Positions 32,064 through 57,608 of a stretch of 64,000 bases of DNA are shown piece by piece. Each line of letters begins with the position of its first letter. Position 1 is the stretch's first letter. The notes under the pieces were generated by a model. That model saw nothing but the letters and a program-made list of their open reading frames with translations. It was not told where the DNA came from and searched no databases. The stretch lies in assembly GCA_964347035.1 (NCBI GenBank), contig CAYFXE010000002.1, positions 17,692 to 81,691 on the forward strand. The letters run 5' to 3'. Made by a program: the position numbers and the translations under genes. This stretch comes from an uncultured Eubacteriales bacterium. Its GTDB lineage: Bacteria; Acidobacteriota; Aminicenantia; Aminicenantales; Aminicenantaceae.

Positions 32064-32079
32064 TGGCATCTTTTTTGCA
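32064..32079 (+). promoter_or_regulatory. sigma-54 (-24/-12) promoter motif
   Basis: TGGCATCTTTTTTGCA. The GG (32065-66) and GC (32077-78) are exactly 12 nt apart. It lies 46 nt upstream of the 32125 ORF. Confidence 0.65.
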
Positions 32080-32124
32080 TGGTCAAAAGTGGTGAGGGAA
32101 AATGGGATCAACAGGGACTGAAGG

Positions 32125-32994
32125 TTGACATATCAAAAAAAATACAAAGGATTGAACGTCAGTGAACTTAAGGTTAGCGTTTTGTTGGCTATCCTCATCT
32201 TGGTTCTCTCCGCTGCTACAAATTCTTGTTTATCGTTTAAATTTCTCAGGTCTATATCTAGGGAAGATTATTTCAGCCAACCCCGGAATGATCCGTATGT
32301 CCTGGAATTAAGAGAAGGGACATCCGAACTTCTTTATTACGGCGCTTTTCATAAGGTCGACCTGGAACACCCTCAGTTCATGGATATCGAGGAGAGGTGG
32401 AAAAAATTTCAACCAACAGTTGCTTTCTGCGAGGGCATTATCTGGCCATTGGAAAAATCACGTAAAGAGGCCATTCGTAAACACGGCGAACAAGGACTCC
32501 TAAGATTTTTAGCCTCTCGTGATAACATCCCCATGAAATGTCTCGATCCTCCTCTGTATCGTCAGGCGGAGTATCTCAGAAGACGTTTCATTCCCAGCCA
32601 CATCAAAATTTACTTTATCTTGCGACAGGCTGCTATTAACCGGATGTTAAGAAGAGATATTGATGATTTAAGATATGTCGGTCGATTACTGAGAAGTTTT
32701 AAGGGGGTAAGTGGGTACGATTGCCCCCCGAATTCATTAGTTGATTTTGAATTTCTTGTCTCTAAGGTTTTTCCCGATCTTAGTGACTGGAGGATGATTT
32801 CTCCTTCTTTCTTTCATTCAGTGGAGCAAGGAAAATTCCTGGCCAAAATTCATCGCCAGCTGAATGAATTCCGAGATGATATCATGATTCGCAATATTAT
32901 GAACGCCTTGAAAAAAGGTGAGAGAGTTTTTGCATTGGTTGGGCGAAGTCATGTGGTGATGCAGGAACAGACCTTACGCACCGTGCTTAAATAA
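32125..32994 (+). CDS. hypothetical exported protein (weak TraB/Tiki/ChaN-like resemblance)
   Basis: TTG start on the track; the start is uncertain. Hydrophobic N-terminus. 'GAFH...CEG' and C-terminal 'LVGRSHV' recall the GxxH motifs of the Tiki/TraB superfamily. Confidence 0.4.
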   Translation: MTYQKKYKGLNVSELKVSVLLAILILVLSAATNSCLSFKFLRSISREDYFSQPRNDPYVLELREGTSELLYYGAFHKVDLEHPQFMDIEERWKKFQPTVAFCEGIIWPLEKSRKEAIRKHGEQGLLRFLASRDNIPMKCLDPPLYRQAEYLRRRFIPSHIKIYFILRQAAINRMLRRDIDDLRYVGRLLRSFKGVSGYDCPPNSLVDFEFLVSKVFPDLSDWRMISPSFFHSVEQGKFLAKIHRQLNEFRDDIMIRNIMNALKKGERVFALVGRSHVVMQEQTLRTVLK

Positions 32995-33185
32995 ATCAAA
33001 TAAGGTGTTCTTTTCCGTCTTTTTTAGCTCATTTCTCTTGATAATCACCCTCAAAAATCGTATCTTCATGTGATGACAGATTTCTCTCAATTGCGTATAT
33101 TCTGAGTGAGGAAAAAAACAAAATGATAAATAATCAAAGATTCCATGATTTCTTAAAACCATGTTGAATCTCTTGGGGGGAAGCC

Positions 33186-33995
33186 ATGAGTTCAAAAAGA
33201 CTATTAAATATGAGGGTGAGCGCAGGGAATCTGATGAAATACCTGGTTTTCCCGGCAGTGGGGATTTTAATCCTCTCGTCTTTTCTATTCCCACAGGAAT
33301 TGACCGGCGAAGAAATCATCCAGAAAGTCAACGACTTATACAACCCAGAGACGAGCTATGCCAAATCCAAGATGACGATCGTTACCACTTCTGGCCAAAA
33401 GAGGACTTTTCTATCTGAATCGTGGAGTATGAACAAGGGCGAGAAGAATCTTGTCCGCTATCTGGAGCCAAAAAGGGTCAAGGGACAGGCCGTCTTGATG
33501 CTCAACAACGCCGATGATATCTGGATGTTTTTCCCTCGGACGCAACGGGTGCGCAAGCTCGCTACCCATGCTAAAAAGCAGAAAATGCAGGGAAGCGATT
33601 TTTCGTACGAGGACATGGGAAGCGGCGATGCCTTCATCCAAGATTTTACATCTCGAAGGCTCGAGGACGAAGAAATGGAAGGATATGACTGTTACAAGCT
33701 TGAACTCACCCGAGTGGCGGACAGTGATCTTTCTTACTCGAGGCTCATCATCTGGGTCATCAAAGACAACTTTGTGCCGGTGGTCATTGATTATTACGAT
33801 GAGGATGATCCGGACCGATGGCTGAAGAGGCTGGTCGGGAGTGATATCCGGACTATCGATGGCATCCCGACGGCGATGAAGATCGTCATGTCTAACCAAG
33901 AGGATAACACCCAGACCGAAATGGAGATCGTGGAAATTAAATACAACATCGAGTTGAGCGCAGATATGTTTACCGAAAGGAGATTGAAAAAGTGA
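33186..33995 (+). CDS. LolA-like outer-membrane lipoprotein-sorting family protein
   Basis: '...LVRYLEPKRVKGQAVLMLNNADDIWMFFPRTQRVRKL...GSDFSYEDMG' is typical of the LolA_like family. The start may be the Met at 33234. Confidence 0.7.
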   Translation: MSSKRLLNMRVSAGNLMKYLVFPAVGILILSSFLFPQELTGEEIIQKVNDLYNPETSYAKSKMTIVTTSGQKRTFLSESWSMNKGEKNLVRYLEPKRVKGQAVLMLNNADDIWMFFPRTQRVRKLATHAKKQKMQGSDFSYEDMGSGDAFIQDFTSRRLEDEEMEGYDCYKLELTRVADSDLSYSRLIIWVIKDNFVPVVIDYYDEDDPDRWLKRLVGSDIRTIDGIPTAMKIVMSNQEDNTQTEMEIVEIKYNIELSADMFTERRLKK

Positions 33996-35182
33996 AGAGA
34001 TGGATTCTGGCAATAGTGATTTTTTCTTTTTGTTTTTCGCCTCTCGCTGCCCAGCTTGAGTTGGATCTTTTCGGATATTTCGAGTCTCAAATCTCAGGGG
34101 CTAAGATCAGAGGGAATTTCTACCAGCTTTACACCAATAAGCTGCGGGTGGACCTGAAATCTGCTCTCTCGGATAACATTACGTTTGCGGCCAATTTTGA
34201 TTACATCACCTATCACGGCAAGACCGAATGGAACATACTGGAATTCCTATCCCCCAGCATCACGTCGTCTATTCCGACCAGTATGCAGCCCTTTTATGTC
34301 CTCAATTTTTCTAACCGGAATTTTCTCGACAACGCTTATATCAAATTTTCTTCCGAGTATTTTGACCTCACGGTCGGGAAACAACAGATTTCTCTGGGCA
34401 CTGGGTATGTCTGGAACCCGACCGATGTCTTCAACATCAAGGATCTCCTCGACCCCACCTACGAACAACCCGGCCACAACGCCATCCGCCTGGACGTTCC
34501 GTTGGGGACGATATACACTTTCACGGCCCTGTACTCGCCCGATGATACCTGGAAGGAATCGGGCAAGCTGGTCCAGTTCAAAGGAAGAATTTCTCATTTT
34601 GATTATGCTTTTATCGTGATAGAGAAGGCCTGGCGCTTCCACGATTACACACGATTTAACTTACTCGAGATGAATTTTTTGGAATTACCCGAGAAACGGC
34701 AGCTGTTTGGAGGAAACACGGCTGGGGAACTCCTCGGCCTAGGAGTTTGGGTCGAGTATGCCTATAACAAAATGGAACTTTCAAAGGACTTCTACGAACT
34801 TGTGATCGGGACAGATTACACCTTTGATTTCCAGACCTACGTGATGGTCGAATACTACCGGAATACCTTGGGGAAAACAGATTATGAACAATATACGATC
34901 AATGATTGGATGCGGTTGTTTGCCCAAGAACAGAAGGCCGTTTCCCGCGACCAAGTCTATGCGTTTGTTCAGCATCCTGTGACGGACTTGATGAATTTGG
35001 GAATATCGAGCGTCTACAGCATTTCAGATAACAGCATTGCCTTGATACCTACCCTGAATTACTCCCTCTCGGACAATGTGGATGTTTTCGCCTACTTGAA
35101 TTTTAACTTCGGCAAGGAAGGGAAAGTTTTTGCCAGGAGTATGAGTGATGGGGGGTTGCTCCGAGTTCGCGTTTATTTCTAA
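33992..35182 (+). CDS. putative outer-membrane beta-barrel protein
   Basis: GTGA overlap with the upstream gene; signal peptide; alternating amphipathic pattern; terminal '...RVRVYF'. Confidence 0.55.
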   Translation: MKRWILAIVIFSFCFSPLAAQLELDLFGYFESQISGAKIRGNFYQLYTNKLRVDLKSALSDNITFAANFDYITYHGKTEWNILEFLSPSITSSIPTSMQPFYVLNFSNRNFLDNAYIKFSSEYFDLTVGKQQISLGTGYVWNPTDVFNIKDLLDPTYEQPGHNAIRLDVPLGTIYTFTALYSPDDTWKESGKLVQFKGRISHFDYAFIVIEKAWRFHDYTRFNLLEMNFLELPEKRQLFGGNTAGELLGLGVWVEYAYNKMELSKDFYELVIGTDYTFDFQTYVMVEYYRNTLGKTDYEQYTINDWMRLFAQEQKAVSRDQVYAFVQHPVTDLMNLGISSVYSISDNSIALIPTLNYSLSDNVDVFAYLNFNFGKEGKVFARSMSDGGLLRVRVYF

Positions 35183-35207
35183 TCGGTGGAGATGAAGGAG
35201 AAGAAAA

Positions 35208-38045
35208 ATGAGAGAAAAGATCCTGAAAAAATTAGCTAGCTGGCATGCCTCTCATCCATGGAGGATGCTGATTGTTGTGTTACTTCTTACTGTTTTCTTC
35301 AGTGCTTTTGCTGCTCAATACAGAGTGACCATGCAGTGGTCGGACCTGCTGCCAACCGGAGATAAGAGGACGGTTCAATTCAACAAAATTATCGATGAGT
35401 TTGTCTCCTCGACGAGCCTCGTCGTGCTGGTCCAAGGGGAGGAGGAACGGATCAAAGAATTCGCAGATGTTCTTGCCCCTCGTATCCTCGAGGCCAGAGA
35501 TTCCAGTAAGAACACCTCCCTCCAGAAAAAAATCGGCAAAAACCAGGAAAAAATAGAGAAGCTTAAGGTTAAAGGAAAGGAAGAATCAAAAATAGCCGAA
35601 CTCCAATCCGAGATCAGAGAACTTCAGTCTCAGATAGATAAGCAAATGTTTCAGCGCGTGGATTACAAAACCCCAGTTGAATTCCTGAGAAACCATGGGC
35701 TGATGCTTGTCAAAGAAGAGGATTTAAAAAACGTCAAGGACATATTCATGGATCCCAACCTGGATGCTCTGTTAGTCAACATCAACAACTCGATGGAGAA
35801 GGAGTATGTGGGCCAGGAGGAGTCGATCTCGACCCGGGAGAAGGAGGACGGAGCCTTTGTCTTCTTGGATGGCATCCAGAACCTGGTTCTCACCCTGCAA
35901 AAGGTGGTTCGAGGGGAAGAGGTTGCCGAAAAGGAAGTTATATCGGCCGGAGATAAGCTTCTTTTAGGCGAGCCCTATTTTATGTCCTACGACAAGAAGG
36001 CGCTCATCCTCAACGCCATTCCTAACTTTTCTATCGTCGATCAGTATCTTCTGGTTTATGCTACAGACACAGTCGGGGAAATTGTCGATGAGCTTTTGAG
36101 GGATTATCCGGATGTGGAAGCTGGCTTAACAGGCACAATCGCTGTTGAACGAGACGAGAATGTCTATGTCAATAAAAGCTTGGGCTCTACGACAGTCATT
36201 GCCCTGATATCCATCCTGGTTCTTCTCATGTTGTCTTTCAGGATGTGGGTGGCTCCTATCCTGGCTTTATCCAACCTCATGCTGGGCTTGGTCTGGGCCT
36301 TAGGGGCGGCCTTGTTGGTCGTTGGCCAGCTGAACTTGATGACGGTCATGATGGCTGTCATCCTTCTCGGGCTGGGTGTCGATTTTTCGATTCATATGAT
36401 ATCAGGATTCACCGAATGGCGGGCAGCCGGAGACAATATCGCTCAGGCTATGGAGAAGACATTCATCAAGAGTGGAAAGGGAATCCTGACTGGAGGTGTG
36501 ACCACGGCCTTTGCCTTCATGGCTTTGATCATCTGTCGCTCCCGCGGCCTTAAGGAAATGGGCATTGTCACTGGAACAGGCCTGCTGGCCATCCTGCTGG
36601 CCACGTTCCTGTTTCTCCCAGTTTTATTGGTGTTCAGGGAACGTCGCATCGACAAAAAGATTGGCACTGGAGCCAAAAAATTTGTCCGTCGGGATATCAG
36701 TTTTCGGTTTCTCGGCCGGACCTGCCAATGGTTGGGTAAGCACTATGTTTTTGCTATTATCGCTTCCATCTTGATCAGCGCTTTCATGGTTTGGTCAGCC
36801 CTCAAGATCACCTTCGACCATAATTACTTGAACATGGAACCCAAAGGATTGACCTCGATTGCGCTGCAAGATGTCATCATGGAGAAGTTCGATTTGAGCA
36901 TGGACTACGCCATGGTTTTGACGGATGATGTTGAAGAGAGCCGGAATCTGTCAGAGAAATTCCGCGATCTTGGTTCTGTCGCCGTCACCGAGGATATATC
37001 GGCTTTTCTGCCCTCTACGGAACAGCAGGAGCGAAGAATTCCGCATCTCCTCGAGATTCGCCAGAGTATCCAATCTGGCTCTAACAGATCAGATGTGCTT
37101 CCTGAGGTACTGCCTGGTCTGCGCCAAGAAATCGAACGGTTAGAGATGAACATCATAGAAATGCAGGACATGGCTTATCTAGGGGGGCATGACAAGGTAG
37201 ACAATAAATGCAAAGAGATTGTGGGCGATCCGGATAATCCCGATTCCAGGAATATCATCCAGGAATTGCTGGAGTTGATGAACACAGATGTTGCTTTGTT
37301 GACAGCCGGCCTCTCTCGGTTCCAACAGCATTTTGCTCCTCATTTCCAGGAATCAGTGGTTAAGATGTGCTCGGTCGAGCCGGTAAACCTAGAGGATCTC
37401 CCGGACAACATCCTGGACCGGTACAGCAACAGAACCAGAGATCAATTCTTGATTACGGTTTTACCTGCAGGCCATATATGGCAAGATGCGAAATTTCTCG
37501 ACCGGTTTGTGGATGACCTGGAGCGGGTGAGTGACAAGGCCACCGGGATGCCTCCTGTTTTCCTCGCTCTGATCCGCATCATCGCTCAGGACGGCCAAAA
37601 CGCGGCTCTGTTGACCCTGGCCGTTGTCTTCCTTCTCCTGTGCGTGGATTTTATGAGCCCTCGGAAGGCCTTGTTAGCCATGATTCCGCTTGCCCTCGGA
37701 ATGTTCTGGATGGTCGGGTTGATGTACCTGACTGGTATGCAACTGACGATGATGAATGTCATGGCCCTTCCTATTATCATAGGTATCGGTATTGACGACG
37801 GCGTGCACATCATCCATCGCTGGAAACATGAAGGGAAGGGAAAAATCCGGACGGTTTTTTCCAGCACAGGGAAAGCGATCTTTCTCACCTCGTTAACAAC
37901 CATGTTAGCCTTTGGATCGCTGGTCTTCTCTGTTTTTAGAGGGTTTGGTCACCTCGGAGGAGCCATGTTCCTGGGTGTGGGTGCCTGCTTCCTGACCACG
38001 GTCATCATCCTCCCAGGATTTATCGGCATGATCGAAAAGAAATAG
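35208..38045 (+). CDS. MMPL/RND-superfamily transporter (HpnN-like architecture)
   Basis: Two 6-TM bundles ('LLGLGVDFSIHM', 'IIGIGIDDGVHIIHRW') separated by large periplasmic domains, plus a Lys/Glu coiled-coil insert near the N-terminus. Confidence 0.8.
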   Translation: MREKILKKLASWHASHPWRMLIVVLLLTVFFSAFAAQYRVTMQWSDLLPTGDKRTVQFNKIIDEFVSSTSLVVLVQGEEERIKEFADVLAPRILEARDSSKNTSLQKKIGKNQEKIEKLKVKGKEESKIAELQSEIRELQSQIDKQMFQRVDYKTPVEFLRNHGLMLVKEEDLKNVKDIFMDPNLDALLVNINNSMEKEYVGQEESISTREKEDGAFVFLDGIQNLVLTLQKVVRGEEVAEKEVISAGDKLLLGEPYFMSYDKKALILNAIPNFSIVDQYLLVYATDTVGEIVDELLRDYPDVEAGLTGTIAVERDENVYVNKSLGSTTVIALISILVLLMLSFRMWVAPILALSNLMLGLVWALGAALLVVGQLNLMTVMMAVILLGLGVDFSIHMISGFTEWRAAGDNIAQAMEKTFIKSGKGILTGGVTTAFAFMALIICRSRGLKEMGIVTGTGLLAILLATFLFLPVLLVFRERRIDKKIGTGAKKFVRRDISFRFLGRTCQWLGKHYVFAIIASILISAFMVWSALKITFDHNYLNMEPKGLTSIALQDVIMEKFDLSMDYAMVLTDDVEESRNLSEKFRDLGSVAVTEDISAFLPSTEQQERRIPHLLEIRQSIQSGSNRSDVLPEVLPGLRQEIERLEMNIIEMQDMAYLGGHDKVDNKCKEIVGDPDNPDSRNIIQELLELMNTDVALLTAGLSRFQQHFAPHFQESVVKMCSVEPVNLEDLPDNILDRYSNRTRDQFLITVLPAGHIWQDAKFLDRFVDDLERVSDKATGMPPVFLALIRIIAQDGQNAALLTLAVVFLLLCVDFMSPRKALLAMIPLALGMFWMVGLMYLTGMQLTMMNVMALPIIIGIGIDDGVHIIHRWKHEGKGKIRTVFSSTGKAIFLTSLTTMLAFGSLVFSVFRGFGHLGGAMFLGVGACFLTTVIILPGFIGMIEKK

Positions 38046-38187
38046 TAAAACAGTCAACAATTTCCAGTTTTCAGTTAAAAATAAGATTTTTTTCTGATTA
38101 CTGGCAACTGTTGACTGACAACTGTCAACTGAATCCTGATTGACCGAATTCGATGTCTGTGGTATATGAAAAAATAGGAAAACATCG

Positions 38188-40059
38188 ATGGCGCACATTG
38201 TATTGAAGCAACTTGACTCCCAAGTCAGAAGCTTTGCTCTCGCTAAAGAAGTGACGACCATAGGGAGAAGCTTGGCCAATGACATCACCATCATAGATCC
38301 CTTCGTCTCTCGCGTCCACGCTAAAATCATTGAAAAGGAAGGGGGCTATGAGATTCTCGATCTGGGCGCCAAGCATGCCGTCGAAGTCAACGGTAAGATC
38401 ATCTCCCGCCAACGTCTTAAAGAAGGCGATAAGATAACACTAGGGAGCTCTCTGCTGATCTTCCAGTCTGAAGATGTCTGTGCGGCTAAAGACGTGACCT
38501 TTCTTACCAACGAAGAAATGTCAGAGGAGTCTGTAGAAGTAGCTTCCTTCGATTCGAAGAAGACCGTTCCTTTCTCCATCGAGGATGTGGATGTCAAGGA
38601 TTTCGTCACCCTCCACAAGGATCATCAAAGACTGATGCTACTTTATCAATTCGGCGGGATAATCAACATATACCTCGAAGATATCCATCATCTTCTTGAA
38701 GAAATTTTAAGCGCTGTCTTCAAGACCCTGGATGCAGAAAGAGGCTTCATTGCCCTCGTGGATGAAGGAACCGGAGAGTTGACCTGCGAGCTCGTTCGAG
38801 ATAGTTCATCTGGTATGACACCGGAAAGACTCGAGGTTAGCAAGACGATCATCCATAAAGTGCAGAGGGAGGGGCTCGCCATCCTGACGATGAATGCCCT
38901 GAAGGACAGCCAGTTCGAGAAAGCAAAGAGCATCCAAGAATACAGCATCAGGTCAGCCATATGTGCTCCCCTCCTGTTCCGGGGAGAAGTTCTCGGTATT
39001 GTCTACTTAGACAATCGGGCTTCAGCCGGAGTTTTTTCAGAGGAGGATCTCAAGTTTTTGACGGCCATTTGCCATCAGGCGGGGATTGCCATGGGGAATG
39101 CTCATCTTCACAGACAGGTGGTTCAAGAGAACATCCGGCTGGAAAATGCGCTGAGACCAAAATTCGAGATTTTGGGTGAATCGGCGAAGATGAAAAAGGT
39201 CTTCAGCACCATGAAAAAAGTCTCTCCCTCGGATATCACTGTGCTTATCCAGGGGCAGACCGGGACCGGAAAAGAAATCGTGGCCAAAGCGATCCACACT
39301 CTTTCTCCGCGAGCTAAAAATCCTTTCGTGGCGGTTAACTGTGCAGCCATTCCGAGAGAGTTGATCGAAAGCGAACTTTTCGGCCATGAGAAGGGGGCCT
39401 TCACCGGAGCCATCAGCACTCGTCTGGGGAAGTTCCAGATAGCCCATGGTGGAACCATTTTTCTCGACGAAATCGGTGACATGAGTCTGGAGACGCAGGC
39501 TAAAGTTCTGCGGACATTGGAAGAAAAGGAATTCCAGCGGATCGGCGGGACAAAGACCTTTCAGGTGGATGTGAGGGTTATTGCCGCTACGAACAAGGAT
39601 CTGGCGAAGGAAGTCGAAAAGAGAAAATTTCGAGAGGATCTGTATTATCGATTAAATGTGGTCTCCATCGACCTCCCCGCCTTGCGGGACAGGAAAAAGG
39701 ACATCATTCCCTTAGCAGAGCATTTTGCTGGTGAGGGAGTAAAGATTTCCCCTCAAGCGAAGAAACTGCTGCTGTCCTACGAATGGCCCGGCAACGTGAG
39801 GGAATTGAAAAACAATATAGAGAGGGCCGTCGTTATGGGAGATGGGAAAGTCATCCAGCCTGAGGATCTTCCCCATAACCTTAGAACTGGCGGAAAGATT
39901 ATCCCTTCTCCTCTAGAGTCGCTCGAGCAGTTGGAAGAAGACCATATCATCCGGGTTCTGCGACAAACAGGTTGGAATAAGAGTGATGCGTCCAGGGTAC
40001 TCGGGATCACCCGTCAGACCCTGGATAACAAAATCGAGAAATACAAAATAAAAAAGTAG
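38188..40059 (+). CDS. sigma-54-dependent transcriptional activator with FHA + GAF + AAA+ + Fis-type HTH domains
   Basis: FHA: 'TTIGRSLANDITIIDPFVSRVHAKI'. GAF region. Walker A 'GQTGTGKE'. Sigma-54 contact loop 'GAFTGA'. C-terminal 'RVLGITRQTLDNKIEKY'. Confidence 0.9.
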   Translation: MAHIVLKQLDSQVRSFALAKEVTTIGRSLANDITIIDPFVSRVHAKIIEKEGGYEILDLGAKHAVEVNGKIISRQRLKEGDKITLGSSLLIFQSEDVCAAKDVTFLTNEEMSEESVEVASFDSKKTVPFSIEDVDVKDFVTLHKDHQRLMLLYQFGGIINIYLEDIHHLLEEILSAVFKTLDAERGFIALVDEGTGELTCELVRDSSSGMTPERLEVSKTIIHKVQREGLAILTMNALKDSQFEKAKSIQEYSIRSAICAPLLFRGEVLGIVYLDNRASAGVFSEEDLKFLTAICHQAGIAMGNAHLHRQVVQENIRLENALRPKFEILGESAKMKKVFSTMKKVSPSDITVLIQGQTGTGKEIVAKAIHTLSPRAKNPFVAVNCAAIPRELIESELFGHEKGAFTGAISTRLGKFQIAHGGTIFLDEIGDMSLETQAKVLRTLEEKEFQRIGGTKTFQVDVRVIAATNKDLAKEVEKRKFREDLYYRLNVVSIDLPALRDRKKDIIPLAEHFAGEGVKISPQAKKLLLSYEWPGNVRELKNNIERAVVMGDGKVIQPEDLPHNLRTGGKIIPSPLESLEQLEEDHIIRVLRQTGWNKSDASRVLGITRQTLDNKIEKYKIKK

Positions 40060-40085
40060 AATCAAGAATTTTCCCCTGTTATTCT

Positions 40086-40110
40086 GAATGAAAATTAGAC
40101 AAAATCATTC
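40086..40110 (+). promoter_or_regulatory. distal conserved upstream motif (candidate activator site)
   Basis: GAATGAAAATTAGACAAAATCATTC is near-identical to GAATGAAATTTAGACAAATTC at 46700-46720. TTAGACA lies 152 nt upstream of the promoter GG. Confidence 0.55.
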
Positions 40111-40178
40111 ATCGTAGCCTTATTTCCTTTAATTATAATAATATACACTCAATTTGTCTCCTATTTTACCCCAATTAT

Positions 40179-40195
40179 GTCTAAATATTAGACAG
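40179..40195. promoter_or_regulatory. proximal palindromic upstream motif (candidate activator site)
   Basis: TGTCTAA-ATA-TTAGACA. TTAGACA lies 58 nt upstream of the promoter GG. Confidence 0.6.
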
Positions 40196-40341: not shown

Positions 40342-40821
40342 ATGCATAAAAAGACATTTATTCTTTTTTGTGCAGCTTTGCTCATACCCTCGTTGATTTA
40401 CGCCCAGCCTGAAGAGACAGGACATATCAAAGGTGTCGTAATTAATCCTGAAGGAAAGCCTCTGCCAGGTGTGACGGTTATCCTGGAGTCTTCTGCTATC
40501 GTTGTCCCCTCATTGGAAACAATAACCGACGAGAACGGTTTGTATAGTTTTGCTTCGCTTCCGCCCGGCGAGTATGAGTTGATTTATTCTCAACCGCATA
40601 GGGAAAAAGTCATACAAAGCGGCATACAGCTTTCGGCAGGAATGACGGTGACCATCGATGTCAACATGACCTGGAGAGCGACAGAAGAATCCATCTTCGT
40701 CAAGGCAAAAGCGCCGACCATCCACATAAAAACCACGAAGGGTGTGATGTCGTTGAGCATTGAATTCCTCCAGTCGCTTTCTTTTTTCCTGAATCTTGTT
40801 TCGAATATGCCCCATGACTAG
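40342..40821 (+). CDS. stand-alone signal peptide + CarboxypepD_reg-like domain; truncated paralog of the N-terminus of the next gene (possible gene fragment)
   Basis: It aligns residue-for-residue with aa 1-~150 of the 40971 product ('EGKPLPGVTVILESSAIVVPSLETITDENG' vs 'EGEPLPGVTVILKSPAIVVPSLETITNESG'). It then terminates where the plug domain would start. Confidence 0.6.
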   Translation: MHKKTFILFCAALLIPSLIYAQPEETGHIKGVVINPEGKPLPGVTVILESSAIVVPSLETITDENGLYSFASLPPGEYELIYSQPHREKVIQSGIQLSAGMTVTIDVNMTWRATEESIFVKAKAPTIHIKTTKGVMSLSIEFLQSLSFFLNLVSNMPHD

Positions 40822-40875
40822 GCGGGATTTCTGTATTTAAGATGGATTTTTCGGAAAATCGGAGGATGTAAGGCT

Positions 40876-40891
40876 TGCCACGAAAAATGCG
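40876..40891 (+). promoter_or_regulatory. degenerate copy of the sigma-54 promoter (-24 GG changed to GC)
   Basis: TGCCACGAAAAATGCG sits at the position homologous to 40246-40261 within the duplicated unit. Confidence 0.35.
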
Positions 40892-40970
40892 AGTTTTATG
40901 TTATCCAAATACCGTGGATACATTTACACATAAAAGAGGCATTTTTTGAAACCAAAAAAGGAGGTGTTTT

Positions 40971-43805: not shown

Positions 43806-43830
43806 GGGCTAGTAAAACTCGGTCGGAAAA

Positions 43831-46360: not shown

Positions 46361-46423
46361 TTTCCTCTTAATTCAAATTAATCCCGCATTTGGTTTTAGA
46401 GAATATCATTCCCTCTCCATTCT

Positions 46424-46655: not shown

Positions 46656-46699
46656 ATACGCTCGTGTCTGTATTTTGAGCAAATTTCATGCGATTTAAT

Positions 46700-46720
46700 G
46701 AATGAAATTTAGACAAATTC
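46700..46720 (+). promoter_or_regulatory. distal conserved upstream motif
   Basis: GAATGAAATTTAGACAAATTC. TTAGACA lies 154 nt upstream of the promoter GG, compared with 152 nt at the 40246 promoter. Confidence 0.55.
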
Positions 46721-46796
46721 CTTCGTATATTGATTATTCCAAATAATTTCAGTAACTTAGAGTCTTTTCATCCCTTCTTTTTGCTGGGTTATGTAT

Positions 46797-46813
46797 AAAA
46801 AATAGACAAATCC
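46797..46813 (+). promoter_or_regulatory. proximal upstream half-site
   Basis: AAAAAATAGACAAATCC. ATAGACA lies 61 nt upstream of the promoter GG. Confidence 0.45.
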
Positions 46814-46877: not shown

Positions 46878-47094
46878 CAATAGAGGTCGATGTTCATGTT
46901 CCAGCGGAGAAGTATCAAACCAGATTTATTGCAGGTGTTCGAACCCAAAGAAACAGGACACAAGAGAAAAAAAAAGAAAAAGAAGAGAAAGGAGGTGAAT
47001 ATGAAAAAGGACAAAAAAAATAGGTGAGCCAAAAAGAGGAGTATATATCAATGACTTATTCAAAAAATTCTCATTACCAAGAAAGGAGGAAAAA

Positions 47095-50040: not shown

Positions 50041-50066
50041 GCTGATTTTACTCCATTCATCCCGGG

Positions 50067-50099
50067 CCCCTTCCGCTTCGGCGGAAGGGGCTTTTTTTT
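50067..50099 (+). terminator. rho-independent terminator
   Basis: CCCCTTCCGC-TTCG-GCGGAAGGGG followed by a T8 run. Confidence 0.85.
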
Positions 50100-50153
50100 G
50101 GCCTGTATCGATGCTAAAATTTGGATGTTCTGAGTGAGAAAGTAAATTTTAAA

Positions 50154-52280
50154 ATGAGAAGAAATTTTCGATTTCCTGTTCTGTTTATCATCTTGATTGT
50201 TTTCTTGGTTTCTGTTCTTGGATTCTCGAAGACAGATGTCAAAAAATCAAAGTACAATTTATTGATAATCACCATCGATACCTTAAGGCCGGATAGACTG
50301 AGCTGTTACAACACAAAAAATGTTGAGACACCGAACATCGATAAGATTGCCCAGAGAGGAGTTCTGTTTACCAAGGCCTTTGCCCATACGCCGACAACCC
50401 TGCCTTCGCATACCAACATTCTCCTCGGGACAACGCCTCTTTATCATGGGATCCACGACAACTCGAATTTTATCGTCGACGAGGAATTCCTGACCTTAGC
50501 CGAACATTTAAAAAGTCATGGTTACGCCACTGCAGCCTTCGTTGGAGCCTTCCCGCTGGATTCGAGGTTCGGTTTGACCCAGGGCTTTGACGTTTACGAT
50601 GACAATTACGGAAGCAAGAGCCATCAGGAATTTTCTTATGTAGAGAGGAGAGCCGAAGTCGTTATCGACAAAGCCTTAGATTGGATACAGGAGAGGCAGA
50701 ATCCCTGGTTTCTGTGGGTTCACTGCTTCGATCCTCACCAGCGGTACGATCCTCCAGAGCCTTTCAAAAGTCAATTTCGAGGCCGCGCCTATGACGGAGA
50801 AGTGGCCTATGTGGACCATGCCTTAGGGCGATTGTTCGGCCTCCTTCAAGAAAAAGAGCATATGGATGAAACACTGATCATTTTCACTGCCGACCATGGC
50901 GAAGCTTTAGGGGAGCACGGGGAAAAGACACACGGGTATTTTGCCTACAACGCAACGATATGGGTTCCTCTGATTGTGTATTATCCGGGCCTCACACCAG
51001 GTCATGTCCATCAACCCGTCTGTCATGCGGATATTTTCCCCACGGTCTGTGATATCCTGGGATTAGAAAAACCTTCCTTTCTCCATGGACTCTCTCTTTT
51101 ACCCTTGATGGAAGGGAAAAAACTGGACAGCAGGATGATTTATTTCGAATCTCTGTATCCTTATTACACCCGAAGCTGGGCACCGCTCCGGGGTTTTATC
51201 CAGAGTAACGAAAAATACATCGACTCTCCGATCCCTGAATTATATAACCTGGAAGAAGACTTTGATGAGCATGAAAACCTTGCTCAAACAAAAACCCTAA
51301 GTCAGTACAGCAAGAGACTTTCAAGATTAATCGAGGAACAGGTATATGCTGATAAAAAAAAGACCACGAAACGAGTCGATCGAGAGGCCCTCGAGAAGCT
51401 TAAGAGTCTGGGCTACGTTTCTGGTACCCAAAGCCCCCCAAAAAAAAGCTTCACTGAGAAGGATGACCTGAAAACCCTTCTTCCTTATCAAAACAAATTG
51501 ATGGAGGCCATGCGGGCCTATGACGGCGCTCGTTTTGAAGAAAGTATATCCATCTTAAAAAACATCATTAAGGAAAGAAAAGATCTCTCTCAAGCCTACT
51601 CTCATCTGGCCACAGTCTATAAAGAACAAAGAAGATTACAAGAGGCGATGGACATTCTCGAGCAAGGATTGGAAAACAATCCAGAGAGCTACAGGATCAT
51701 CGAAACCTACGGGATCATACTCACTGAAGCCGGAGAGTATGATCGGGCACTCGAGATCCTCCAGGATGGTTTGAAGTACATTGATTATGATCCTGAGATA
51801 TGGAATTATCTGGGAGTGGCCTACTGGAAAAAGGGAGACTTCCAGAATGCCCATGAGGCCTTCCAGAAGGTTCTGGCATTGGACGACAACTACTCCATCG
51901 TTTTTAATAATCTTGGGTCTCTGTATCTATCTCAGTCTTTAAAAACTAGAAATGTCGATGATCTAAGACAGGCCATCCGGAATTTTAAGAAAGCCATAGA
52001 ACTCGATCCCGGGTATGCAGAGGCGTACAATGGCTTAGGAAGTGCTTACGGAAATGCTGGGAATTTGGAGGCAGCGATTCAAAGTTGGGAAAGAGCCCTA
52101 GAACTCAAGCCGGATTATGATTTTCCACTTTATAATCTCGGGCTTTCCTATTTAAGCAAAGGGAACAAAAGCAGAGCTTTGGGCTATTTCGACAGATATA
52201 AAGCAAAGCATTACCAAAGGCTTTCCTCTGAAGAGAAGAAAAAACTCGACGACCTCATCCAGAGATGTCAGGATAGATAA
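50154..52280 (+). CDS. sulfatase-like enzyme fused to C-terminal TPR array (paralog 2)
   Basis: The likely ATG is at 50154, giving signal peptide MRRNFRFPVLFIILIVFLVSVLG. Motifs 'LLIITIDTLRPDRL', 'PTTLPSHTNILLGT' and 'TADHGEALGEHGE', plus TPR repeats. Confidence 0.8.
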   Translation: MRRNFRFPVLFIILIVFLVSVLGFSKTDVKKSKYNLLIITIDTLRPDRLSCYNTKNVETPNIDKIAQRGVLFTKAFAHTPTTLPSHTNILLGTTPLYHGIHDNSNFIVDEEFLTLAEHLKSHGYATAAFVGAFPLDSRFGLTQGFDVYDDNYGSKSHQEFSYVERRAEVVIDKALDWIQERQNPWFLWVHCFDPHQRYDPPEPFKSQFRGRAYDGEVAYVDHALGRLFGLLQEKEHMDETLIIFTADHGEALGEHGEKTHGYFAYNATIWVPLIVYYPGLTPGHVHQPVCHADIFPTVCDILGLEKPSFLHGLSLLPLMEGKKLDSRMIYFESLYPYYTRSWAPLRGFIQSNEKYIDSPIPELYNLEEDFDEHENLAQTKTLSQYSKRLSRLIEEQVYADKKKTTKRVDREALEKLKSLGYVSGTQSPPKKSFTEKDDLKTLLPYQNKLMEAMRAYDGARFEESISILKNIIKERKDLSQAYSHLATVYKEQRRLQEAMDILEQGLENNPESYRIIETYGIILTEAGEYDRALEILQDGLKYIDYDPEIWNYLGVAYWKKGDFQNAHEAFQKVLALDDNYSIVFNNLGSLYLSQSLKTRNVDDLRQAIRNFKKAIELDPGYAEAYNGLGSAYGNAGNLEAAIQSWERALELKPDYDFPLYNLGLSYLSKGNKSRALGYFDRYKAKHYQRLSSEEKKKLDDLIQRCQDR

Positions 52281-52301
52281 ATATTCAACAGGGATAGGAT
52301 C

Positions 52302-54386
52302 ATGAAGATTTATAAATGGATATGTTGTTTTTTTATTATTCTTCTTTTTATCCGGCCGATTTACCCTGCAGAAAAGATGAAAGAAGAAGGTCTTTCCGAA
52401 AAGTACAGAGAATGGCTTAAAGTAACGAGTTACATCATCCTTCCCCAGGAAAAAGATGTTTTTTTGCAGCTTGCTTCAGATAGAGACAGGGATCTCTTCA
52501 TCCAGGCCTTCTGGCGCCACCGGGATCCTACTCCAGGAACGCCTCAGAATGAATACAAACAGGAGCATTTGAAACGTTTCGCCTACGCGAATGCCTATTA
52601 TAAGCGAGGAACTCCCCGCGAGGGATGGATGACCGATATGGGAAAAATACATATCATCCTCGGGCCTCCTTCGAGCATCGAGAGGTTTGACAGCGAGGCA
52701 GGTATCCATCCTTGTCAAGTGTGGTATTATTATGGAGACAAGACAAAGGGACTTCCTACTTATTTTGCCATCATTTTCTTTCAACGAGGAGGAGCTGGAG
52801 AATATAAACTGTACAACCCCACTACTGACGGCCCTGGCAGTCTTTTGATCGGAGGGTATGGGCGGGGTGTGGCGGATTACCGAGCGGTATACCAGAAGAT
52901 CAAGGAACTCGCTCCGAGTTTGGCCGGAGTGGCCATCTCGATGATCCCTGGTCAGATCCCCCCTGATTATCAACCCACTCCCAGGAATAACATCATCTTG
53001 GCCAATATTTTTGAGTCCCCGAAAAAGGAGTTAACTCCAACCTATGCCACTCACTTCTTGAACTATAGAGGGATCGTCAGTACCGAGTATTTGACCAATT
53101 ACATCGAGAGCTTCGGTCTTGTGGCTTTGACTCGAGATCCTGTTCTGGATATGAATTTTGTTCATTTCTCCATCAATCCCAAAAGCTTTTCTGCTGATTA
53201 CTTTGAGCCCAAAGATCAGTATTTCTGTAATTTTCAGCTCAACGTCAGTGTTAGGCACGATCAGGAAGTGATCTTTCAGTATTCGAAGGATTTTCCTTTC
53301 TATTTCGAACCTTCCGCTATGGAGAGGATAAAAGGAAAAGGAATTTCCATCCAGGATTCTTTCCCTCTGATCGAAGGAAAGTACAGGTTGATTGTTCTCA
53401 TTCAAAATTCCGTGGGCAAAGAATTCAGTGTTTTCGAAAAAGATGTTAATGTTCCAGAGTCAACGGGATTACCCGGGATAATCAGTCCTGTTCTCGGCTT
53501 CAAAGCTGAGCAACAAAGAGATCCTCTGCACATGCCTTTCAAAGTTGCAGAAACAAAAATACTCGTTGACCCGGAAAATACGATTTCTCCATCTGAAGAA
53601 GTGGTTCTGTTATTTAATCTCGTCAACATATCAGATGAGATGAGGGAATCAGGAAAGATCAGGATTCTCGTCAACGGCCTTGGTCACAGGGACCCGATAA
53701 AAAAATCTTTTACCCTCGAACTGAAAACATACCCCTCTAAAAAAACTCTGGTCATCACCCACTCCATCCCGGCTAGAGAGTTTTCCCCGGATTACTATGA
53801 GATGAGTTTAATCCTTGAAGACGGTGAAGGAAATACAATCGACGAGAAAAAAACACAATTTATCCTTTCTTCCCAAGCAGAGGTTCCTCACCCCGTTACC
53901 CTGGCCAAGTCATTCCCTGTATCAAACAACTTTTTGTATTCTTATTCTTTTGCCTACCAATATGACAAAGTGAAAAACTTCCAGAGCGCAGAGGAATATT
54001 ATGAAGATGCTTACAGGCTGAAACCCGATTACAACAGGGGAATTGTTGAATATTCGAACTTCCTGCTTAAGATAAGAAAATTCGAGAAAAGCCTGGATTT
54101 TATCGAAAAAGTCAGCGACGATGAGGAAATGAAATTTCAGTATCACCTGGTAAAAGGGAAAGCTTTACTTGGAATGGAAAAGTATCAAGAGGCTATAGAA
54201 TCATTGCTCGAGGGGAATAAAATCTACAACAGCGATGTTGGACTCCTAAACTCTCTTGGTCTATGTTACTACAAAATCGGCAGAAAAGAAGAAGCCTTGG
54301 ATGTCCTCAAAGCTTCCCTTCGGTTAAATGCCAATCAGAAGGATATCAAAAAGCTCATCGATGACATCGAGAAAAACCACGATTAA
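52302..54386 (+). CDS. GWxTD-domain protein with C-terminal TPR repeats
   Basis: Signal peptide; 'REGWMTDMGKIHIILGPP' is the GWxTD signature; TPR-like C-terminus. It starts 22 nt after the sulfatase-like gene. Confidence 0.75.
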   Translation: MKIYKWICCFFIILLFIRPIYPAEKMKEEGLSEKYREWLKVTSYIILPQEKDVFLQLASDRDRDLFIQAFWRHRDPTPGTPQNEYKQEHLKRFAYANAYYKRGTPREGWMTDMGKIHIILGPPSSIERFDSEAGIHPCQVWYYYGDKTKGLPTYFAIIFFQRGGAGEYKLYNPTTDGPGSLLIGGYGRGVADYRAVYQKIKELAPSLAGVAISMIPGQIPPDYQPTPRNNIILANIFESPKKELTPTYATHFLNYRGIVSTEYLTNYIESFGLVALTRDPVLDMNFVHFSINPKSFSADYFEPKDQYFCNFQLNVSVRHDQEVIFQYSKDFPFYFEPSAMERIKGKGISIQDSFPLIEGKYRLIVLIQNSVGKEFSVFEKDVNVPESTGLPGIISPVLGFKAEQQRDPLHMPFKVAETKILVDPENTISPSEEVVLLFNLVNISDEMRESGKIRILVNGLGHRDPIKKSFTLELKTYPSKKTLVITHSIPAREFSPDYYEMSLILEDGEGNTIDEKKTQFILSSQAEVPHPVTLAKSFPVSNNFLYSYSFAYQYDKVKNFQSAEEYYEDAYRLKPDYNRGIVEYSNFLLKIRKFEKSLDFIEKVSDDEEMKFQYHLVKGKALLGMEKYQEAIESLLEGNKIYNSDVGLLNSLGLCYYKIGRKEEALDVLKASLRLNANQKDIKKLIDDIEKNHD

Positions 54387-54387
54387 T

Positions 54388-54414
54388 CGTCTAATTTGTT
54401 AAAAAATTAGACAC
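54388..54414. promoter_or_regulatory. inverted-repeat upstream motif (candidate activator site)
   Basis: CGTCTAAT-N11-ATTAGACAC. TTAGACA lies 59 nt upstream of the promoter GG. Confidence 0.55.
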
Positions 54415-54615: not shown

Positions 54616-55299
54616 ATGCAGGATGACGTCAAAGAGGTTTTAAACATCATTAGGGAAAGGATTAAAAATGATCCGACGAATTCGAAGATGGTCTGTACCT
54701 ACGGCATCCTGCTCATTGAAGTTGGGCATTATGATGCGGCTGTGGAGATTCTGCGAGAGGGCTTGACGTACAAACAGGATGATGCAGAATTGTGGAGTTA
54801 TTTGGGATTGGCTTACTGGCGGAAGGATGATCAAAAAAATGCGATCACCTCTTACCAGAAAGCCATTCTTTTAAACAAGCATTACCCAGTTGTTTTTTTT
54901 AATCTAGCGTCTCTTTATCTTTCCCGATACGTCGAGTCGAAAAACGAAGTCTATTTCAAAAACTCCGTTAAAAATTTTAAGAAGGCGATCGAACTCGATC
55001 CCTGCTATGCTTCAGCCTACAATGGTTTGGGAACTGCGTATGTCAAAGCAAACAATATCGAAGCGGCCATCAATTGTTGGGAAAAGACTATCAAGATCAA
55101 ACCTGAGTTCTCATCTGCCGTTTATAATCTAGCTCTCGCTTATCTGGCCAAAGGGAATAGCACCAAGGCTTTGAAGTTCTTTAACAAGTACAAGAAGAAT
55201 CACTATGAACATCTGACTCAGGGAGAAAAAGACCAGTTCGATGCTTTGATCAAGAAATGCCAGAACAACAGGAAAAGAGGTGACACCGCCTACGGATAA
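54616..55299 (+). CDS. stand-alone TPR protein, paralogous to the C-terminal TPR module of the sulfatase-like proteins
   Basis: 'FKKAIELDPCYASAYNGLGTAY...AAINCWEKTIKIKPEF...YNLALAYLAKGN' vs 'FKKAIELDPGYAEAYNGLGSAY...AAIQSWERALELKPDY...YNLGLSYLSKGN' in the 50154 product. GGAGG SD site; no signal peptide. Confidence 0.75.
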   Translation: MQDDVKEVLNIIRERIKNDPTNSKMVCTYGILLIEVGHYDAAVEILREGLTYKQDDAELWSYLGLAYWRKDDQKNAITSYQKAILLNKHYPVVFFNLASLYLSRYVESKNEVYFKNSVKNFKKAIELDPCYASAYNGLGTAYVKANNIEAAINCWEKTIKIKPEFSSAVYNLALAYLAKGNSTKALKFFNKYKKNHYEHLTQGEKDQFDALIKKCQNNRKRGDTAYG

Positions 55300-56155: not shown

Positions 56156-56647
56156 TTAAGTCATGTTTAAATAGTGGCTTCTCCCTCGGAATTTCCTGAG
56201 AATAAGCGGTGAAAAAAAGAGCATCACCGCATTCTGGATCATAAGCGATAGAGTTACTATTGCTTGTAATGAGAGGATCTCTTCTGCGGCCAGCTCCTTC
56301 AGTAAAGGCAGTATCAGTATCACAGTTAGGACAACGAGAGATACTAAGGCCAGCCAGATATACGCAGGAATGGATGTGGCCTTGATTCGACTGATAAACC
56401 CTTTCTCATTCGGATAAGGAGTCTTTATGGCGGTGTGACACATGAGTTGAGTTCGATGTATCAACTCTTCAGAGGGAACAGGAGCTTTTGTCTCCTGAAG
56501 AAAAAGCCGGATTTTTTTCAGATCCTCTTCGAAACAGGCACAATCTTCACATTGGGCAACATGCTTCTCAACCAGGGACAACCTGTCTTCCTCCAGGGTT
56601 TCATCTGATAAGTCGATAAGCCATCGTTGGATGTCTTTACACTTCAT
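56156..56647 (-). CDS. zf-HC2-type anti-sigma factor
   Basis: N-terminal 'C...H...C..C' motif ('EKHVAQCEDCACFEED') plus two TM helices. ATGA overlap with the sigma gene. Confidence 0.75.
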   Translation of the reverse strand: MKCKDIQRWLIDLSDETLEEDRLSLVEKHVAQCEDCACFEEDLKKIRLFLQETKAPVPSEELIHRTQLMCHTAIKTPYPNEKGFISRIKATSIPAYIWLALVSLVVLTVILILPLLKELAAEEILSLQAIVTLSLMIQNAVMLFFSPLILRKFRGRSHYLNMT

Positions 56648-57270
56648 GTTGTCCTCTCTTCCAGGGAATAGGGTTTGGGTTTATAGGCGGAAAGATCTCG
56701 TTGGAGCCCTTTCACTGCCCGGTACATCAAGGATTTGACCGTCCCTATCGGTATCTTGAGCATCTCGCTGATTTCTGTTTGTTTGAACCCCTCGATTTCC
56801 TTGAGAACAAAAATGAGACGTTGGCGTTCGGGAAGTTGGGTTAGGGCTTTTGATAGAGCCATACTCAAATCTTTCTGATCCTCCGCTTTAGAATTTTTGC
56901 ATACCTTTTTTCCCGTCGATACAGATACTATGTTTTCTCCTTGCTTGAAAGCTTTGTATTTTTGGAGGAGGAATAGCCGCCTGATCCTTTTCTTCCGAAG
57001 AGCATCGCGATGCAGGTTGGCGGCTATGGTCAAGATCCAGGATATGAATGTACTTTCTTTCGAGATTTTCGGAAAATTTTTTACCACTCGCAACCATGTC
57101 TCCTGAAAAAGATCTTCTGCCTCCCCTCTGTTTTGTGTCAGATAATATGCAAAACGGAAGACTGCGGTTTTGTGTTCATCGTACAGGGCATCGAATTCGG
57201 CGGAGCTAAGAGAATCTGTTTTCTGGACAGAATTTCCAATCTCAGCCTTCAACACATTCTCCATTCGCAT
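56644..57270 (-). CDS. ECF-type sigma-70 family sigma factor
   Basis: Region 2 reads 'AEDLFQETWLRVVKNF' and region 4 reads 'GFKQTEISEMLKIPIGTVKSLMYRAVKGL'. Confidence 0.85.
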   Translation of the reverse strand: MRMENVLKAEIGNSVQKTDSLSSAEFDALYDEHKTAVFRFAYYLTQNRGEAEDLFQETWLRVVKNFPKISKESTFISWILTIAANLHRDALRKKRIRRLFLLQKYKAFKQGENIVSVSTGKKVCKNSKAEDQKDLSMALSKALTQLPERQRLIFVLKEIEGFKQTEISEMLKIPIGTVKSLMYRAVKGLQRDLSAYKPKPYSLEERTT

Positions 57271-57480
57271 CCAGTTTCATTAGATAGGACGTTTGAGACA
57301 GGAAATAGTTTTGGTCAAAAAAAATTCTGTTAATTCCTTCAATTTCATGATTTTGAAAAAAGCAATGATTTTTAGTTTCGATCACTCCAATTATAAAAAA
57401 ATGATGACGAAGATCAAACCAGAAGAAATGAGATTTAATTCACCAGATTGGACATTGATGGGAAGAAGGTTAGATGGGAA

Positions 57481-57501
57481 ATTGTCTAATTTTTAGACAA
57501 T
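57481..57501. promoter_or_regulatory. perfect palindromic upstream motif (candidate activator/regulator site)
   Basis: ATTGTCTAA-TTT-TTAGACAAT. It lies in the divergent region between the ECF sigma gene and the third receptor-like gene, 101 nt upstream of the promoter GG. Confidence 0.6.
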
Positions 57502-57592
57502 TTTCCGTAAATAATGAGCCAAGTTTTAAATAAATCCTCCTGTCCTTTCTCTATCCCCCTGAAAAGAAAAGAGTTAATTTATCTCATCATCT

Positions 57593-57608
57593 TGGTACAT
57601 AAATTGCA
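57593..57608 (+). promoter_or_regulatory. sigma-54 (-24/-12) promoter motif
   Basis: TGGTACATAAATTGCA, with GG and GC spaced 12 nt apart. It lies 295 nt upstream of the 57903 ATG. Confidence 0.65.

Follow-up and report, generated by a model that had tools for sequence, protein, structure and literature searches.

Five -24/-12 elements with shared upstream dyads suggest an enhancer-dependent sigma-54 regulon of envelope and uptake genes in an Aminicenantes-like bacterium

Do five -24/-12 elements found close together in one stretch of bacterial DNA represent genuine sigma-54 (RpoN) promoters, and if they do, are they parts of a single regulon? The question is raised by a 64,000-nt stretch of contig CAYFXE010000002.1 (assembly GCA_964347035.1), hereafter called the window, which is 85% coding and whose own positions serve as coordinates throughout. 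An earlier note on this DNA had pointed to five 16-mers at 32064, 40246, 46862, 54465 and 57593, and had proposed that they head one co-regulated envelope programme. All five are present on the plus strand, with exactly the letters that had been given. We report herein that a common type of dyad lies upstream of every element, and that the same dyad accompanies orthologues of a sigma-54 activator gene located in the window. The reading that we favor, with a probability of roughly 0.7, is that of a single enhancer-dependent sigma-54 regulon in an Aminicenantes-like (Acidobacteriota) bacterium, which would be driven by this activator through two kinds of upstream site, box A and box B.

The elements, designated P1 to P5, are TGGCATCTTTTTTGCA (P1, 32064-32079), TGGCACAAAAAATGCA (P2, 40246-40261), TGGCATAATTTTTGCT (P3, 46862-46877), TGGCATGTATTTTGCT (P4, 54465-54480) and TGGTACATAAATTGCA (P5, 57593-57608). 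In each of them GG and GC are separated by exactly 10 nt, the canonical -24/-12 spacing, as had been claimed, and the base preceding TGG is invariably C or T. P3 is followed by CAATAG, as are the corresponding sites of two related loci (L001 and L084, see below). The pattern proposed by the earlier note, which had been derived from the five sites themselves, matched the window 5 times where 0.62 matches were expected, and in 100 dinucleotide shuffles five matches were never attained. A stricter pattern, TGGCAY-N5-TTGCW, gave 3 matches against 0.10 expected.

Because the first pattern had been fitted to the sites, a separate sigma-54 position weight matrix (PWM) was written after the published consensus, unfitted to the five sites, and both strands of the window were scanned with it. 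The five top-scoring positions of the whole window were exactly P1 to P5 (14.5-17.8 bits), with P4 scoring highest (17.8 bits) and P1 scoring 15.8 bits. The runners-up (13.9 and 13.1 bits) lie within genes and have no T ahead of GG. At a cut-off of at least 14.4 bits, 5 sites were observed, whereas 100 simulations under a first-order Markov model gave 0.66 on average and never more than 3. Equally good matches in coding DNA, named beforehand as an outcome that would speak against the promoters, were sought and not found, no site within a gene exceeding 13.9 bits.

The positions of the elements are likewise those expected of promoters. Each of the five lies between genes, in the orientation of the gene that follows, and the distances from the C of GC to the start codon are 47, 82, 219, 137 and 296 nt for P1 to P5, respectively, in agreement with the range of 45-295 nt reported earlier. 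Pairs of sigma-70-like hexamers, on the other hand, were not enriched in the window (28 vs. 20.5 expected and 17 vs. 20.7 expected). When 22 -24/-12 sites from the window and its relatives were aligned, information was common only at TGGCA...TTGC, an alignment that is partly circular because the sites had been selected with the PWM. Since motif, PWM rank, position, an adjoining activator with a GAFTGA loop and retention in about 10 relatives all agree, the five motifs are very probably genuine sigma-54 promoters.

A TTAGACA-type dyad occurs upstream of all five promoters and takes two forms. Box B is a 17-bp dyad, TGTCTAA-N3-TTAGACA, and box A is the variant TGnATGAAAwTTAGACA, which reads TGAATGAAAwTTAGACA at P2 and P3. 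At P2, box A (TGAATGAAAATTAGACA, 40085-40101) lies 93 bp upstream of a perfect box B (TGTCTAAATATTAGACA, 40178-40194), the centre of which is 61 bp upstream of GG. The same interval of 93 bp separates box A of P3 (TGAATGAAATTTAGACA, 46699-46715) from its box B (TGTATAAAAAATAGACA, 46792-46808), which has 2 mismatches and is centred 63 bp upstream of GG. P4 has a box B with 2 mismatches (TGTTAAAAAATTAGACA, 54397-54413; centre 61 bp upstream of GG) and an extra CGTCTAA half-site at 54388, and P5 has a perfect box B (TGTCTAATTTTTAGACA, 57483-57499; centre 103 bp upstream of GG). All of these are on the plus strand. The site at P1 is a box A in inverted orientation (31954-31970, minus strand), with 3 mismatches to box B and its centre 103 bp from GG; its reverse complement, TGTATGAATTTTAGACG, matches the box A of relatives, for example TGTATGAAAATTAGACA in L082 and TGTATGAAATTTAGACA in L093.

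With up to 3 mismatches allowed, the dyad pattern matched the window 11 times against 2.58 expected. With up to 2 mismatches there were 5 matches, 4 of which are sited 68-110 nt upstream of P2 to P5. The two distance classes, 61-63 and 103 bp, differ by about four helical turns, and the sites therefore face the same side of the helix. That all five promoters share a dyad of one type, in one or the other of these two distance classes, supports the earlier proposal of one co-regulated programme.

Which protein might bind these dyads? Two sigma-54 activators had been claimed for the window, and Pfam identified both of them (the Pfam and NCBIfam scans covered 48 window open reading frames (ORFs) of at least 100 aa that were un-nested in a longer frame, 8 shorter ORFs being left out). 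The gene of the first (38188-40059, plus strand) starts 142 nt after the P1 operon, with no terminator between the two, and encodes an FHA-GAF-Sigma54_activat-HTH_8 protein (PF00158, E=7e-75; PF00498, E=2e-15; PF02954). Its GAFTGA loop, at residue 403, is intact. The FHA signature GR...SRxH...NG (G26 R27, S41 R42 H44 and N68 G69) is invariant between the window protein and that of L001, and the recognition helix of the helix-turn-helix (HTH) domain, ITRQTLDNKI, is invariant in all orthologues of the activator. The gap ahead of the gene (38046-38187) contains repeated GTCAAC/GTTGAC units (CAGTCAACA ... TGTTGACTGACAACTGTCAACTG) and a sigma-70-like TTGACC-N17-TATATG, and could hold the promoter and operator of the activator itself.

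The second activator, a receiver-Sigma54_activat-HTH_8 protein (PF00158, E=9e-68), is encoded on the minus strand from 62645 to past the window end, and together with its histidine kinase occupies 61300-64000 (minus strand); this pair is not implicated in the five promoters. The second activator has a GAFTDA loop and an HTH helix unlike that of the FHA-GAF activator. Orthologues of the latter vary at the loop as well, with GAFTDA in L001 and L084 and GSFTGA in L083. Since the L001 and L084 loci retain sigma-54 promoters and enhancers, this lineage appears to tolerate GAFTDA as a natural variant.

An argument for linking dyads to the FHA-GAF activator comes from its relatives. The activator belongs to a small family: a search of 5.8 billion proteins yielded about 21 close relatives, most of them fragments. 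The sole full-length orthologue in the one-genome-per-species GTDB set belongs to a Candidatus Aminicenantes metagenome-assembled genome (MAG), L001, with 67% identity. Nine further loci (L081-L089) were obtained from a metagenome scan with the FHA-GAF part of the activator as the query (alignment A1), and four more contexts (L090-L093) were supplied by the protein search. Where scored, the orthologues are 60-67% identical in amino acids over the N-terminal region of the activator. The order activator gene, box A, 91-93 bp, box B, -24/-12 element recurs in L001/L088, L081/L082, L083, L084, L085, L090, L092 and L093, with the promoter on the opposite strand in L083; L091 has kept box B and the promoters, and shows no recognizable box A. 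A -24/-12 site was found 3' of the activator orthologue in L001, L082, L083, L084, L085, L090, L091, L092 and L093.

When ten regions 3' of the activator gene were aligned (alignment A2), conservation was confined to two islands, box A and box B, at constant spacing, and the mean column identity was 54%. Box B is also specific to this setting. With up to 2 mismatches, 17 copies were found in 203.5 kb of Aminicenantes-like loci, 15 of them no more than 400 nt upstream of a sigma-54 site, and 1.19 Mb of loci belonging to other phyla contained none. The genes served are of the TonB-receptor or CarboxypepD_reg type in L001, L084, L085, L090 and L091, code for an unknown protein and an ankyrin-repeat protein in L081/L082 and L083, and have no family assignment in L092 and L093. 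L091 mirrors P2 of the window, in that a promoter (TGGCACAAAA..TGC) precedes a small CarboxypepD_reg gene; the promoter at L091:1660, TGGCACAAAACCTGCT, is orthologous to P2 and has the same kind of small gene behind it. On the basis of synteny and co-conservation, the protein that binds the dyads is probably the activator encoded at 38188-40059, although we hold this with less confidence than the sigma-54 nature of the promoters.

These observations can be assembled into the following model. RNA polymerase-sigma-54 holoenzyme would sit at each TGGCAY-N6-TGCW element as a closed complex and await the AAA+ activator encoded at 38188-40059. Dimers of the activator would contact box B and box A through the Fis-type HTH, on one face of the DNA, at sites 61-63 bp (P2-P4) or 103 bp (P1 and P5) upstream of GG. 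The bound activator would then oligomerize and reach sigma-54 through DNA looping, and ATP hydrolysis, coupled through the GAFTGA loop, would drive opening of the promoter. The N-terminal FHA domain, a phosphothreonine reader, and the GAF domain probably control the activity of the activator. The predicted output comprises three TonB-dependent-receptor-type barrels, two of which are accompanied by sulfatase-family-TPR lipoproteins and one by a GWxTD-TPR protein, as well as a LolA-like/porin-like/RND operon of the lipid-transport type and a small TPR protein.

Several observations weigh against so unified a picture. Two of the elements deviate from the consensus, P2 with AA instead of TT at -15/-14 and P5 with TGGTAC, and P1 has only a single degenerate, inverted box. 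P2/P3 and P4/P5 are paralogous pairs, the latter with common flanking sequence; the five sites are therefore not independent, and represent about three independent origins. In relatives, the distance from box B to the -24/-12 element varies widely, from 57 to 346 nt. No rpoN was found among the window ORFs scanned, and a regular expression for the RpoN box had no match in six-frame translations of 90 sequences, including all fetched loci; from the two sigma-54 activators, we nevertheless infer that rpoN is present in the source genome. No Ser/Thr kinase is encoded in the window. Finally, an extracytoplasmic function (ECF) sigma factor (56644-57270) and a zf-HC2 anti-sigma factor are encoded divergently from P5, and the second activator, with its different HTH, adjoins P5 as well, such that regulators other than the FHA-GAF activator, or in addition to it, could act on P5 and perhaps on P4.

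This last point leads to the possibility of a split regulon, in which the FHA-GAF activator would control P1 to P3, while the receiver-type activator with its histidine kinase, or some other factor, would control P4 and P5. P4 and P5 do share an extended flank, TTAGACAnTTTTCCGnnAAATAAT, that is not found at P2 and P3, both are without a box A, and about 0.4-3 kb separates the P5 receptor gene from that of the two-component activator. Nonetheless, the perfect box B of P5 and the 2-mismatch box B of P4 are the very dyad found 3' of the FHA-GAF activator gene in relatives, and the TTTTCCG-flanked variant also stands directly 3' of that gene in L085. The two activators have different recognition helices, which makes it unlikely that a single dyad would be used by both, and a split of this kind is considered unlikely. 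A different doubt concerns the dyads themselves, which might be operators of another, non-AAA+ factor, such as a repressor or a nucleoid protein, with real -24/-12 sites answering to true enhancers elsewhere. A distance of 61-63 bp is at the short end for sites of enhancer-binding proteins, and the window encodes further DNA-binding proteins, namely a GntR-family regulator (29924-30286) and two ECF sigma factors. It is difficult to see on these terms, however, why the dyads should accompany the FHA-GAF activator gene in about 10 loci while the other neighbors change, and why box B should occur almost exclusively upstream of sigma-54 sites; moreover, the 7-3-7 geometry is known to suit dimeric activators with a Fis-type HTH, such as NtrC. 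We hold this explanation to be somewhat less probable still than a split regulon.

A third alternative is that the motifs are non-functional look-alikes, arising by chance or as duplicated relics, and that the genes are expressed from sigma-70 or ECF promoters, P5 in particular by the ECF sigma factor at 56644-57270 in the manner of FecI/FecR/FecA. The paralogy of P2/P3 and P4/P5, the existence of a decayed look-alike at 40876-40891 (see below) and the ECF sigma/anti-sigma pair adjoining the P5 receptor gene are all compatible with it. Against these stand an enrichment of about 8-fold that no shuffle or simulation out of 100 reproduced with five sites, the lack of equivalent matches within genes, and sigma-70-like hexamer pairs that are no more frequent than expected. 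The motif is also kept at orthologous positions, where column identity in the flanks has fallen to about 54%. Look-alikes are hence very improbable, and the single regulon driven by the FHA-GAF activator is retained as the preferred reading.

What, then, would such a regulon control? Domain scans and inspection of N-termini assign four genes to the P1 operon (32125-38045, plus strand), coding for a lipoprotein-like 289-aa protein with a weak TraB/GumN match, a LolA-like protein, a porin-like beta-barrel and an RND transporter of the HpnN/MMPL type. The P2 operon (40342-46360, plus strand) consists of three genes, which encode a small secreted CarboxypepD_reg protein of 159 aa, a barrel of the TonB-dependent-receptor type (944 aa) and an 824-aa lipoprotein of the sulfatase-family-TPR kind. 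The P3 unit (47095-54386, plus strand) likewise has three genes, here for a receptor-type barrel of 981 aa (again TonB-dependent), a second sulfatase-family-TPR protein, of 719 aa, and a 694-aa GWxTD-TPR protein, in an order that is the same in L001. P4 precedes a gene (54616-55299, plus strand) for a 227-aa TPR protein without a signal peptide, and P5 one for a TonB-dependent-receptor-type barrel of 1011 aa (57903-60938, plus strand). The suggestion that every promoter heads an envelope or uptake module is not obviously right for P4, whose product lacks a signal peptide. The receptors carry CarboxypepD_reg N-termini, and no N-terminal signalling extension was detected in them.

A strong intrinsic terminator at 50064-50093, with a 13-bp stem containing 9 G-C pairs and followed by T8, lies 3' of the P3 receptor gene and precedes the sulfatase-family and GWxTD genes. 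It was the sole clear one in the terminator scan, and may uncouple the downstream genes of P3, through either attenuated or separate expression. A full-text literature search for "GWxTD" found no paper. The CarboxypepD_reg protein of the P2 operon (40342-40821) is paralogous to the N-terminal part of the adjoining receptor, with 65% identity over the first ~146 residues of the latter, the gene of which starts at 40971. The same arrangement of small gene and receptor is seen in L091 (1717-2118), with one -24/-12 site per gene. In the window, a decayed -24/-12 look-alike, TGCCACGAAAAATGCG (40876-40891), in which GG is changed to GC, lies ahead of the receptor gene.

The two sulfatase-family domains (43886-46360 and 50121-52280) match PF00884 with E=1e-49 and 8e-46, their closest PDB relatives are sulfatases, and both are fused to a long TPR region, the former with a lipobox. 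A motif search of the first 200 residues of both proteins, however, found no C/S-x-P/A-x-R formylglycine motif. By eye, the expected formylglycine position reads T-L-P-S-H in both paralogues (PLTLPSHVTLFTG and PTTLPSHTNILLG). T-L-P-S-H resembles the threonine-nucleophile motif of phosphodiesterases of the nucleotide pyrophosphatase/phosphodiesterase (NPP) type. The two PF00884 proteins may consequently be other than sulfatases.

A candidate source of the input signal emerges from synteny. A gene for a Ser/Thr kinase with TPRs, mostly with an N-terminal Zn-ribbon, adjoins the activator in L082 (6276-9042, minus strand), L085 (6319-9555, minus strand), L090 (6798-9393, minus strand), L091 (5723-8845, plus strand) and L092 (3134-5539, minus strand). 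L001 (after 20206) and L087 (after 750) have a Zn-ribbon ORF, a candidate counterpart, at the kinase position. The kinase gene or its candidate counterpart often lies behind a -24/-12 site of its own without box B (L082, 9162, minus strand; L085, 9561, minus strand; L087, 750, minus strand; L091, 5624, plus strand; L001, 20206, plus strand), and L093 has a further -24/-12 site at 318 (minus strand). Taken with what is known of Myxococcus FHA-domain activators, this synteny suggests a cascade from kinase to FHA activator to sigma-54. The likely chain would begin with a Hanks-type Ser/Thr kinase bearing a Zn-ribbon and a TPR sensor region, which would perceive some physiological signal, and would run through a phospho-dependent FHA switch to the activator and on to sigma-54.

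In its fullest form, the scheme would be specific to this lineage. The Zn-ribbon Hanks kinase with TPRs would act on the FHA-GAF activator, which would act in turn through a bipartite enhancer, in which a constant 91-93 bp, or about nine helical turns, separates box A from box B within otherwise unconserved DNA, on sigma-54 and hence on TonB receptors and atypical, threonine-type sulfatase-family lipoproteins. We put this complete version forward tentatively, rating it at somewhat short of an even chance. If true, it would describe a nutrient- or envelope-acquisition programme without a characterized counterpart and the first regulon model for Aminicenantes; a full-text literature search found no paper linking Aminicenantes to sigma-54 or rpoN.

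The leaders and intergenic regions of the promoters have features of their own. A perfect anti-Shine-Dalgarno complement, AAAAAGGAGGTGA, occurs in the long leaders, well upstream of the receptor start codon, in P3 (~46988-47027) and P5 (~57724-57737), and in L001 (~12310-12345), L084 (~3905-3945) and L085 (~12786 and ~12884). An 8-codon mini-ORF comes after it in P3 (MKKDKKNR*), L001 (MKNNGINE*) and L084 (MKNCGKNK*), and may be a regulatory upstream ORF or else what is left of the start of a small CarboxypepD_reg gene, now lost, of the kind found at P2 and in L091. A 55-codon ORF (MNLENKLKYILIRLTEIEEAVLKLL...) is found in L001 (12183-12350) and L084 (3776-3943); it starts ~16 nt past the promoter GC, and the mRNA would therefore be nearly leaderless. 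Between L001 and L084, 12 of its 168 nt differ (about 93% identity), with 7 synonymous and 4 non-synonymous codon changes, and the 150 nt upstream of the promoter are about 60% identical. P3 of the window has a non-homologous 45-codon ORF at that place. An Rfam scan of the whole window, including the 219- and 296-nt leaders, returned nothing at the gathering threshold.

Upstream of P3 (46400-46600) and P1 (31890-31935) are palindromes resembling repetitive extragenic palindromic (REP) sequences or miniature inverted-repeat transposable elements (MITEs), of the form ATTCCC-N8-GGGAAT, for example GGATTCCCGCTTTCGCGGGAATGAC. Also in this intergenic DNA, CCTGCGTArGCAGGAAACC occurs twice, and a 32-nt sequence is repeated in inverted orientation (46406-46437 and 46563-46594). 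Farther to the left, between the genes for an amino-acid permease and a DUF5658 protein, two reverse-complementary 17-mers, CGTCTCAACATTTGACA (25418-25434) and TGTCAAATGTTGAGACG (25478-25494), are 60 nt apart; they have 3 mismatches to box B, and no sigma-54 site is near. The left half of the window also contains multihaem and c-type cytochrome genes (13537-15261 and 19561-20358; Cytochrome_C554/MtrC-like and Dehyd-heme_bind) and the gene for a tricorn-type protease (5364-8639), all of which are unrelated to the sigma-54 cluster.

If the single-regulon reading is correct, an uncultivated lineage would gain a concrete, testable regulon in which the promoter, the sequence of the enhancer, the activator and, probably, the kinase above it are specified. 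The combination of TGTCTAA-N3-TTAGACA with a -24/-12 site could be used to scan Aminicenantes MAGs for the whole regulon. In addition, TonB-dependent receptors and the unusual sulfatase-family/TPR and GWxTD proteins would be tied into one response, which would help in proposing roles for them.

How does this system compare with those already known? Two likenesses are partial. The best match of the second activator is TIGR02915 (PrsR), and several TPR proteins weakly match PrsT, recalling the PrsK/PrsR/PrsT system associated with PEP-CTERM proteins. The assignment was rejected, as all three scores are below the curated cut-offs: 385.6 vs. 502.6 for PrsR, where the response regulator runs off the window end, 68.8 vs. 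300 for PrsK (TIGR02916) and 121 vs. 312 for PrsT. No exosortase or PEP-CTERM protein was seen among the window ORFs scanned. The ECF sigma factor and zf-HC2 anti-sigma factor divergent from the P5 receptor gene recall FecI/FecR/FecA. In contrast to that system, the P5 region has a -24/-12 element and a perfect dyad, and its receptor, like the others, shows no sign of a signalling extension.

The closest parallel in architecture is NtrC at glnAp2. Common to both are the GG-N10-GC core within TGGCAC-N5-TTGCW, upstream 17-bp 7-3-7 dyads for an AAA+ activator with a Fis-type HTH, with more than one site per promoter, and an activator gene beside its own targets. The NtrC dyad is TGCACC-N5-GGTGCA, whereas the dyad described here, TGTCTAA-N3-TTAGACA, is new. 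Two NtrC sites are about 3 helical turns apart, compared to 91-93 bp here, an unusually wide fixed spacing. Furthermore, the present activator has an FHA and GAF sensory module and no receiver, and its predicted targets are outer-membrane receptors rather than nitrogen assimilation genes.

With respect to the sensory module, Jelsbak et al. are said to have described enhancer-binding proteins with FHA domains from Myxococcus xanthus in 2005. These resemble the present protein in having an N-terminal FHA domain, a sigma-54 AAA+ domain and an HTH, and in a presumed control by Hanks-type Ser/Thr kinases. Unlike them, the window protein has a GAF domain inserted between FHA and AAA+, belongs to a small family in another phylum, and is predicted to act on genes for uptake and the envelope, where theirs are developmental. 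Reviews on the regulation of type VI secretion systems likewise mention activators with FHA domains.

At the level of function, sigma-54 has been generalized as a "controller of the bacterial exterior", with transport and envelope functions as its theme (Francke et al. 2011, PMC3162934; cf. PMC4551910). The regulon predicted here, which consists of transport and envelope functions, agrees with this generalization, and the text of PMC3162934 mentions neither Acidobacteria nor TonB. Knowledge of sigma-54 itself is left unchanged, for this would be another case of envelope and transport gene control within ordinary bacterial regulation. Rather than a new principle, the present case adds to the generalization a lineage and a class of targets.

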